From NCBI RefSeq assembly GCF_055900595.2, contig NZ_CM148325.1: a DNA stretch of 64,000 bases. One strand, 5' to 3'. Of this stretch, positions 4,035-21,968 are shown piece after piece. How positions within the stretch are numbered: position 1 is the first letter of the stretch; every line of letters begins with the position of its first letter. The position numbers were made by a program, and so were the translations under genes. The notes beneath the pieces were generated by a model. The model worked only from the letters and a program-made list of their open reading frames with translations. It was not told the origin of the DNA and ran no database searches.

Positions 4035-4655
4035 TTATTCTCCACAGGCAGGAAGTTGAGAAAGTTGTGCCGGTAACGTCTGCGCGTACAATCCGGCGCG
4101 TTTTACCGCATTTACCACCGCGCGCGGAGTAATCGTCGCGCCGGTGAACTGGTCGAAATCACCACCATCTTTCTTCACCGCCCAGTGCGCATCATCCGCA
4201 CCACTGATTTTTTTACCCGCAAAATGGGTGATCCAGTCAGAAAGGCGCAGTTCGATTTTATCGCCAAGCCCTGGCGTTTCGTGGTGCTCTGTCACGCGCG
4301 TGCCTAGTACCGTGCCGTTAAAATCGGCTCCCACCAGCAGCTGAATCGCACCAGAATAGCCATCTGGCGCGGTTGCTTCCAGAACGGCGGCTACCGGTTT
4401 GTCATCCTGTTTGGCGATGTAAACCCGATGCTCACCTTTACCTAACTCTGGCGCAGTTACCAGATAGCAACTCTGTGCCAGCGCATTGTTATAGCGTTCG
4501 GCTGGCAGCACCTGATCAAATAACGCCTTTTGTTGCAGACTGGCCTGTTCAGCAATTGTCGTTTTGGTCATCTGGTTGATGGCCGCAGTTAACCCTGTAG
4601 AACCCGCTGCAAATAGTGCCAGTGTAATGCCGTGTTTTCGGATAGTTTTCAGCAT
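4035..4655 (-). CDS. rsxG: Rnf/Rsx complex subunit G
   Basis: 206-aa ORF with N-terminal signal/anchor; conserved operon position. Confidence 0.92.
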
Positions 4656-4658
4656 GGT

Positions 4659-5717
4659 TTACCCTTTGCGATGGCCGTAGACGCGCGGACGCGTGTAGTA
4701 ATCGATCAGAGGAACCGTGATGTTCGCCAGCAGGACGGCAAAAGCCACGCCGTCAGGATAGCCGCCGAAACTGCGGATCAACCAGACTAATAAACCCGCC
4801 AGCGCGCCGAAAATAAGACGACCACGATTGGTCGTAGAAGCGGTAACCGGGTCAGTCAAAATAAAGAATGCGCCGAGCATGGTCGCTCCAGACAGCAGAT
4901 GAATTTGCGGTGCTGCCAGTGTTTCTGGTGAGAACAACCAGCCCAACGTTGCGCATAACGCCAGCGTTACTAAGAAGCTGAGGGGAATATGCCAGCGAAT
5001 CGCTTTCTGCCATAGCAACCACACGCCGCCAGCCAGCCAGGCGAGATTCACCCATTGCCAGCCTGCACCCGCGAGAATACCGCTGTAGATAGGATATTGC
5101 ATAATCTGTTCAACCGAATGACCGGCGCGGACAGAGGTTTTGAATGTATCCAGCGGTGTTGCCTGACTTATGCCATCAATACCTAAGCGTAGTGTGTTCA
5201 TATCATTGCCACTGGTGGTATGACCGCTGAAAATAACCTGTACGGCGTCGACAAAACCAGGGATGTTGACCGCAATGTCATGCGGCGGTAACCAGCTGGT
5301 CATCTGCACCGGGAAGGAGATCAGTAAGACCACATAACCAATCATTGCCGGATTAAACGGGTTTTGCCCCAGACCGCCATACAACTGTTTAGCGATGATC
5401 ACCGCAAACACCGTACCCAGTACGACCATCCACCATGGCGCGAGGGGGGGAATACTTACCGCCAGCAATAAGCCTGTCAGCAATGCTGAGTTATCTTTCA
5501 ACGTTGCGGCTACTGATTGCTTGCGTAGTTTGAGTACGAGAGCTTCGGCTAACAGAGCACTGACCGACGCCAACAGGATCTGAACGAGAGTACCCCAACC
5601 AAAAAACCACAGTTGCGCTGCGATTCCTGGCACGGCTGCGAGCAACACCAACAGCATAATGCGCGATGTTTGGCGCTGGTTATGGGTATAAGGGGAGCTA
5701 GCTATTCTGAATACCAT
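4659..5717 (-). CDS. rsxD: Rnf/Rsx complex subunit D (polytopic membrane protein)
   Basis: 352-aa hydrophobic ORF; conserved operon position. Confidence 0.92.
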
Positions 5718-13913: not shown

Positions 13914-16709
<2,796 letters not shown>

Positions 16710-17588: not shown

Positions 17589-17808
17589 TACACTAACGGA
17601 CCGGTAAACAACCGTCCGTGTTGTTTACCGGGATAAACTCATCAACGTCTCTGCTAAACAACTGGCAACCAAATCACGGATATTGGTTAACCAATTTACG
17701 AGTGAAAAGTATACGAATAGAGTGTGCCTTCGCACTATTCAACAGCAATGATAGGCGCTCACCTGACAACGCGGTAAACTAGTTATTCACGCTAACTATA
17801 ATGGTTTA

Positions 17809-18399
17809 ATGATGGATAACATGCAGACTGAAGCACAACCGACACGGACCCGGATCCTCAATGCTGCCAGAGAGATTTTTTCAGAAAATGGATTTCACAG
17901 TGCCTCGATGAAAGCCATCTGTAAATCTTGCGCCATTAGTCCCGGGACGCTCTATCACCATTTCATCTCCAAAGAAGCCTTGATTCAGGCGATTATCTTA
18001 CAGGACCAGGAGAGGGCGCTGGCCCGTTTCCGGGAACCGATTGAAGGGATTCATTTCGTTGACTATATGGTCGAGTCTATTGTCTCTCTCACCCATGAGG
18101 CCTTTGGGCAACGGGCGCTGGTGGTCGAAATTATGGCGGAAGGGATGCGTAACCCACAGGTCGCCGCCATGCTTAAAAATAAGCATATGACGATCACGGA
18201 ATTTGTTGCCCAGCGGATGCGTGATGCCCAGCAAAAAGGCGAGATAAGCCCAGACATCAACACGGCAATGACTTCACGTTTACTGCTGGATCTGACCTAC
18301 GGTGTACTGGCCGATATCGAAGCGGAAGATCTGGCGCGTGAAGCGTCGTTTGCTCAGGGATTACGCGCGATGATTGGCGGTATCTTAACCGCATCCTGA
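17809..18399 (+). CDS. uidR: TetR-family repressor of the uid operon
   Basis: 196-aa ORF; TetR-type N-terminal HTH; immediately upstream of uidA. Confidence 0.92.
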   Translation: MMDNMQTEAQPTRTRILNAAREIFSENGFHSASMKAICKSCAISPGTLYHHFISKEALIQAIILQDQERALARFREPIEGIHFVDYMVESIVSLTHEAFGQRALVVEIMAEGMRNPQVAAMLKNKHMTITEFVAQRMRDAQQKGEISPDINTAMTSRLLLDLTYGVLADIEAEDLAREASFAQGLRAMIGGILTAS

Positions 18400-18554
18400 T
18401 CCTCTCTCTTTCCGCGGGCTGGTGACAACTGAGCCCGCGTTTCATATCGTAATTTCTCTGTGCAAAAATCATCCTCCCAGGGATCGGAGAATCCCACCTA
18501 AATATTCATCTTAGCAATATATCATGAGGGTTTATCGCTCCCAATATGTTCGAA

Positions 18555-18564
18555 CGAACGTTCG
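18555..18564. promoter_or_regulatory. Palindrome cgaacgttcg in uidA upstream region; candidate UidR/UxuR operator
   Basis: Perfect 10-bp palindrome within ttcgaacgaacgttcgattg, about 220 bp upstream of the uidA start. Confidence 0.35.
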
Positions 18565-18735
18565 ATTGCTTATTTTGTGGCTTCTGTCAACGCTGTTTTA
18601 AAGATTAATGCGATCAATATCACGCTGTGGGTATTGCAGTTTTTGGTTTTTTGATCGCGGTGTCAGTTCTTTTTATTTCCATTTCTCTTCCATGGGTTTC
18701 TCACAGATAACTGTGTGCAACACAGAATTGGTTAA

Positions 18736-21968
<3,233 letters not shown>

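Follow-up and report, generated by a model that had tools for sequence, protein, structure and literature searches.

The spacer between uidR and uidA raises the question of whether a perfect 10-bp palindrome inside it (CGAACGTTCG, enclosed in TTCGAACGAACGTTCGATTG at 18549-18568) marks an operator of the uid operon, and, if it does, which repressor binds there and how it acts. A preliminary description of this DNA had proposed a candidate uid operator at the palindrome, had named UidR and UxuR as the repressors of the operon, and had called the palindrome the most symmetric element in the region. The product of uidA, beta-glucuronidase (GUS), serves as a standard reporter, the enzyme of gut bacteria reactivates drug glucuronides, and the exact operator would be useful for building glucuronide-responsive switches. 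Our reading is that the palindrome is very probably the core of the principal uid/gus operator O1 (18550-18568), which would be bound by UidR and would repress at a distance. No new kind of element is described; what is added here is a consensus at base resolution from eight genera. This consensus, a conservation boundary within Escherichia, the decay of the site in lineages without uidABC, a neighboring GTCAAY element and the absence of a second O1-like site may go beyond the literature.

The window (the whole stretch of DNA analysed, 64,000 nucleotides) is E. coli chromosome and carries malX-malI-hdhA-uidR-uidABC, with gene names taken from 100% matches to annotated E. coli chromosomes; in K-12 DH1 the order is malX, malI, hdhA, uidR, uidA, uidB. 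The uidR/uidA spacer, which contains the palindrome, is 387 bp long (Table 1). Of 5426 complete E. coli genomes, 5418 contain the segment 18400-18790 (391 bp) with 91-100% identity, flanked by the annotated uidR and uidA genes. Searched against the PDB, the UidR protein retrieved 6AYI ("HTH-type transcriptional regulator UidR") with E = 3.6e-125 and also 6AYH, a Salmonella homolog, and its remaining PDB matches were all TetR-family proteins. Protein similarity confirms its assignment as UidR/GusR, of the TetR family.

Table 1. Features of the uidR-uidA region, in window coordinates.
Feature	Positions	Strand	Remarks
Perfect 14-bp palindrome ATTGGTTAACCAAT	17682..17695		GntR-type box overlapping the -35 of the uidR promoter; unrelated to the 19-bp site
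uidR (gusR)	17809..18399	+	TetR-family glucuronide-responsive repressor; annotated matches, PDB 6AYI
Likely uidR terminator	18413..18439	+	Hairpin CGCGGGCT-N11-AGCCCGCG, then TTT; directly 3' of the uidR stop codon
Conserved 19-bp site TCGAACGAACGTTCGATTG	18550..18568	+	Consensus TnGAAyGAACrTTCGrTTG; proposed UidR/GusR operator O1
Perfect 10-bp palindrome CGAACGTTCG	18555..18564		Core of the 19-bp site
GTCAAY element	18586..18591	+	GTCAA invariant in the eight-genus alignment; exactly 17 bp past the TTG of the site
CRP-like site TGCGATCAATATCACG	18609..18624		8/10 to TGTGA-N6-TCACA; centre 57 bp from the operator centre
Candidate uidA core promoter, -10-like CAGATAACTG	18704..18713	+	TGnTAAnTn in other genera
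Putative GntR-type (UxuR/ExuR-like) box ATTGGTTAACTAAT	18727..18740		Differs at one of 14 bases (13/14) from the perfect palindrome upstream of uidR
Second GntR-type box AAAGGTTGACCAGT	18747..18760		GGTTGACCA or GGTTAACC conserved in 6/8 genera
uidA (gusA)	18787..20598	+	Beta-glucuronidase, the regulated gene

A palindrome inside a conserved 19-bp block

The palindrome was found between uidR and uidA as the preliminary description had it, and it is the longest perfect palindrome within the spacer. Two further symmetries overlap it, namely GTTCGAAC (18548-55) and TCGAAC-N4-GTTCGA (18550-65). The claim that it is the most symmetric element in the region holds among perfect palindromes and fails otherwise, given that the box at 18727-40 is a 14-bp palindrome with one base off. 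As a dyad in the range of TetR-type operators (~15-30 bp), the site has a perfect 10-bp core and 7 of 9 pairs over 18 bp, centred at 18559/18560. Symmetry by itself was nevertheless rejected as evidence of function and is a weak argument, because palindromes of this length are no more frequent than expected at random: the window has 54 perfect ones of 10 bp or longer versus ~62 expected, and shuffled versions of the spacer contain a mean of 0.38 of them, with at least one in 32% of the shuffles. On these counts alone the palindrome could be a chance occurrence without function, and what bears on the matter is its conservation.

We compared the spacer across eight genera (Escherichia, Salmonella, Enterobacter, Cedecea, Buttiauxella, Mixta, Yersinia and Erwinia), whose UidR homologs, with 47-66% identity, were found by protein similarity and then traced to the contigs encoding them. 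A contig scan with a single UidR protein retrieved at least three loci, in Escherichia, and the orthologs were taken instead from the protein-similarity route. Each of the eight gusR/gusA spacers contains exactly one TnGAAyGAACrTTCGrTTG block, whose orientation with respect to gusA is constant and whose distance to the gusA ATG is 227-255 bp (~228 bp in the window). In a MAFFT alignment of the eight genera, 15 of the 19 block positions are invariant, the mean column identity being 52%, and no other 19-mer of the spacer is conserved as well: the mismatches of the block to the seven other genera add up to 10, versus a median of 52. Within the window the 19-mer has no second match at up to three mismatches (0.01 expected). 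The site is real, unique, and strongly and specifically conserved, and it co-occurs with gusR and gusA, at one copy in each of the eight genera.

The conserved unit does not coincide with the palindrome. In Enterobacter, Cedecea and Buttiauxella the perfect palindrome is shortened to 8 bp (GAACGTTC), and in Mixta it is interrupted by a G-to-A change (GAACATTC). Since the flanks TnGAAy and GrTTG are kept though the palindrome shrinks, the functional unit, as judged from the alignment, is the partly asymmetric 19-bp block rather than the 10-bp palindrome. Its flanks are conserved yet asymmetric, and conserved asymmetry of this kind is unusual for a simple dimer operator.

The arrangement of gusR differs between these loci. 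It is divergent from gusABC in Salmonella, Enterobacter, Cedecea, Buttiauxella and Mixta, and in tandem with it in Escherichia, Yersinia and Erwinia, and the position of the block relative to gusA is the same in both arrangements. This bears on a reading of the site as an RNA or DNA hairpin, in which TCGAAC-GAAC-GTTCGA with a T-rich tail would serve as a weak intrinsic terminator, or as an attenuator, against transcription running on from uidR. A consensus scan does mark 18550-18565 as terminator-like, and the predicted hairpin has -8.6 kcal/mol, but its z-score is only -1.5, with 15 of 200 shuffles folding equally well or better, and a much better uidR terminator hairpin lies directly after the gene (Table 1). 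The block is also equally conserved where gusR is divergent and there is no upstream transcript needing termination. Furthermore, a C-to-T change at 18555 in three genera is uncompensated, and uncompensated stem substitutions indicate that the sequence is conserved and not the pairing; no Rfam family matched the site. Judged by a stable GC-rich hairpin, a U tract and maintained pairing, the site does not qualify as an intrinsic terminator, and we consider the hairpin reading highly improbable.

Scans of the window and of all ortholog spacers with a position weight matrix and by mismatch counting found no second O1-like site, neither a possible O2 nor one upstream of uidR. A 50%-identical Salmonella UidR homolog (L020) has no gusA and no site on its contig, which ends ~1 kb past the gene; neither this locus nor one frameshift-ridden E. 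coli assembly (L019) was informative. Several further observations concern the setting of these loci. The operator marks a rearrangement boundary between loci with divergent and tandem gusR (L005-L007 and L009-L013 compared with the window). In Enterobacter hormaechei (L005 and L006), gusR-gusABC has transposases of the IS1 and IS66 types and a group II intron reverse transcriptase on its flanks, and its neighbors on a replicon of 269 kb include ParM-like and H-NS genes; given these transposase flanks, these neighbors and this replicon, the cluster is probably plasmid-borne, and probably mobile as well. The Erwinia locus (L012) contains a tandem heptamer, (CACTCAG)n, immediately 3' of gusR (4592-4660).

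Variation and loss of the site within Escherichia

Among seven Escherichia sequences, the spacer changes from a hypervariable uidR-side half, with ~70 variable columns in 18400-18549, to a nearly invariant uidA-side half, with 13 in 18550-18789, the transition coinciding exactly with the block's left edge. The only block position that varies within Escherichia is 18565 (A or G), which varies between genera too. As seen in these alignments, the proposed operator is the upstream boundary of the conserved regulatory region. A boundary this sharp, together with conservation in eight genera at a fixed position and orientation within otherwise diverged spacers, refutes the chance reading of the palindrome, which we give practically no probability.

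Two lineages, Escherichia sp. MOD1-EC7003 (L003) and strain SCPM-O-B-8794 (L004), have kept uidR at 92-95% identity and lost uidABC. In the region examined for both (4580-5100), the site is half deleted in the former and replaced in the latter. Strain SCPM-O-B-8794 retains the promoter-proximal 150 bp with both GntR-type boxes, without the operator. A different deletion was found in E. coli CUVET18-565 (L018), a urinary-tract isolate from dog urine. It extends from the middle of uidR to ~18673, so that the operator and the CRP-like site are missing together with the 3' half of uidR. An intact uidA keeps 117 bp of upstream DNA, and GUS expression in this strain is predicted to be free of UidR control.

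UidR, the published operator O1 and the GntR-type boxes

The two helix-turn-helix stretches of UidR (GFHS.SMK.IC and SPGTLYHHF.SK.AL) are invariant in all eight orthologs, while overall identity is only 47-63%. An invariant DNA-reading helix paired with an invariant site would be the pattern expected of a cognate pair. Pellegrino et al. 2023 (PMC9881133) report two operators upstream of gusA, O1 and O2, to which GusR binds, and that deletion of the O1 segment (164 bp) makes a reporter behave nearly alike in repressing and inducing conditions. The primers of that work (DE6279/DE6280) place the deletion at 18447-18609 of the window, where it encloses the 19-bp block. The loss of GusR and glucuronide control belongs to the whole 164-bp deletion and is thus coarser than 19 bp; within the deleted segment, conservation between genera is limited to the 19-bp block and GTCAAY. 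The two GusR operators of the literature contrast with the single O1-like site per locus here. For O1, the operator of the gus/uid operon to which GusR (UidR) binds with high affinity, the same paper refers to Little et al. 2018 (PNAS), and the first proposal of gus operator regions is credited to Blanco et al. 1985. A full-text literature search with the sequence of the site itself gave no relevant match. We take older accounts to have placed one gus operator palindrome far upstream, around an AACGTT (Psp1406I) site, which would fit 18557-62, and a second around an HpaI site, GTTAAC, which would fit 18731-36.

The site agrees with O1 of the gus/uid operon in its spacer, in its neighboring repressor gene, in its location inside the deleted segment and in the loss of the glucuronide response, and nothing in the 19 bp is demonstrably different. 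It is almost certainly the main UidR (GusR) operator O1 that has already been described, and as such an ordinary known element. The 19-bp block would then presumably correspond to the published O1 base for base, and UidR would contact these 19 bp directly. The preliminary proposal of a uid operator at the palindrome is supported by the footprint across eight genera, by the population pattern in Escherichia, and by the published deletion that ends GusR and glucuronide control. Its naming of both UidR and UxuR needs to be divided, as the site fits UidR and does not fit UxuR, whose putative GntR-type boxes lie elsewhere.

These boxes form a separate set. A search of the window with ATTGGTTAACCAAT at up to two mismatches returned 17682-95, 18727-40 and 38135-48, and the 19-bp site is absent from the result; the match at 38135-38148 is 12/14. 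At the first box downstream of the operator, TGGTTAAC is conserved in 4/8 genera, with TGGTTTAC in Yersinia and TGGTTGAC in Erwinia, and the second box contains GGTTGACCAGT. By a consensus of TTGGT-N2-ACCAA type, we take 17682-95, 18727-40 and 18747-60 to be candidate UxuR boxes. The constitutive uidR promoter is TTAACC-17-TATACG (PMC3946193).

Given that the comparative evidence shows just some sequence-specific constraint, the site might be bound by a conserved regulator of gusA other than UidR, such as UxuR/ExuR, CRP, KdgR or another factor. UxuR is a reported regulator of uidA and uidR, both uid genes being listed among its targets, and no factor has been assigned to the adjacent GTCAAY element. 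However, the UxuR/ExuR operators of the hexuronate regulon (GntR family), which control the same operon from the same spacer, are boxes of the TTGGT-N2-ACCAA type, and the site contains no such box, these being separate, nor any match to TGTGA-N6-TCACA. Every locus that bears the site also has a gusR ortholog with an invariant recognition helix, and deletion of the segment abolishes the response to glucuronide, which is the signal of UidR. The site is also absent upstream of uidR, where a GntR-type box covers the -35 of the promoter. Taken with these points, binding by a regulator other than UidR appears improbable.

Downstream elements and proposed repression from a distance

On its 3' side the site is followed by GTCAAY, the CRP-like site, the -10-like block, the two GntR-type boxes and the uidA ATG, in this order. 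GTCAAY starts 26 bp from the operator centre, a spacing that is identical in 9/9 sequences compared, and lies 17-18 bp before the CRP-like site. Readings of GTCAAY as an IHF or a sigma-E element were rejected on spacing. A sigma-70 promoter formed through the TTG of the site, or through the reverse-strand TTGAC of GTCAAY, was also rejected for lack of a -10 at 16-18 bp; manual inspection found no acceptable one at this distance on either strand in any genus.

In seven of the eight genera a CRP-like match of 7-9/10 has a constant offset, and the Yersinia equivalent is one base closer in the alignment. By its fit to the consensus, 18609-18624 may be a CRP site. Forty-two bp downstream of it, at 18651-18666, there is a weaker TGATC-N6-TCAGT, and the E. 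coli pair of CRP-like sequences is embedded in an 8-bp inverted repeat, GCGATCAA/TTGATCGC (18610-17 and 18651-58). The -10-like block begins 141.5-144.5 bp from the operator centre across genera, and we read it as the putative core promoter of uidA. In CRISPRi tiling data, the strongest upstream guides (-105 and -94) target the neighborhood of this block, a result compatible with, and not decisive for, a core promoter near 18685-18720. If the block is the promoter, transcription would start near 18720, with the centre of O1 near -160, the CRP-like site near -103 and the weaker TGATC-N6-TCAGT near -61.5.

The site resembles the operators of other TetR-family repressors, such as tetO of TetR and IR1 of QacR, in being a short dyad (~15-30 bp) beside the regulator gene, for a TetR-fold repressor that is released by its ligand. 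It differs from them in position, since tetO and IR1 overlap the promoters they control, whereas the 19-bp site is separated from the likely core promoter downstream by ~150 bp that contain activator-like sites, and has flanks that are conserved but asymmetric. No sigma-70-like -35/-10 pair overlaps the site on the plus strand, so that, provisionally, promoter overlap of the TetR type is not seen here.

In the mechanism that we propose, UidR (GusR), a TetR-family protein, would sit on 18550-18568 in the absence of glucuronide; glucuronide would bind UidR, UidR would leave O1, and uidABC would be transcribed. Because O1 lies ~228 bp from the ATG, with the CRP-like site downstream of it and the only conserved -10-like element ~148 bp away in that direction, UidR bound there would repress at a distance and not by simple occlusion of RNA polymerase. 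Two routes can be envisaged. In the first, UidR at O1 would cooperate, or form a DNA loop, with a promoter-proximal repressor, for example UxuR at the boxes in 18727-60 or UidR at a weak second site. In the second, UidR would interfere with the upstream activating region formed by GTCAAY and the CRP-like site. The title of a 1986 paper reports cooperative regulation of uidA expression, which points toward the first route. Across genera, the stretch from O1 to the GntR-type boxes differs in length by up to 5 bp, which would be awkward for a strictly phased loop. The cooperation referred to in 1986 is said to be one between UidR and UxuR. The spacing of O1, GTCAAY and the CRP-like site is identical in all genera compared, apart from one base in Yersinia, and this rigidity against the 5-bp spread to the GntR-type boxes slightly favors the second route. 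A more specific and rather unlikely version would treat O1, GTCAAY (at 26 bp) and the CRP-like site (at 57 bp) as a module of fixed geometry. UidR would there counteract activation, either with the help of a partner bound to GTCAAY or as a dimer of dimers, instead of occluding the promoter or simply looping to UxuR.

Elsewhere in the window, the divergent spacer between malX and malI contains two palindromes, GATAAAACGTTTTATC (15557-15572) and TAAAACGTTTTA (15637-15648), which we take to be probable MalI operators.
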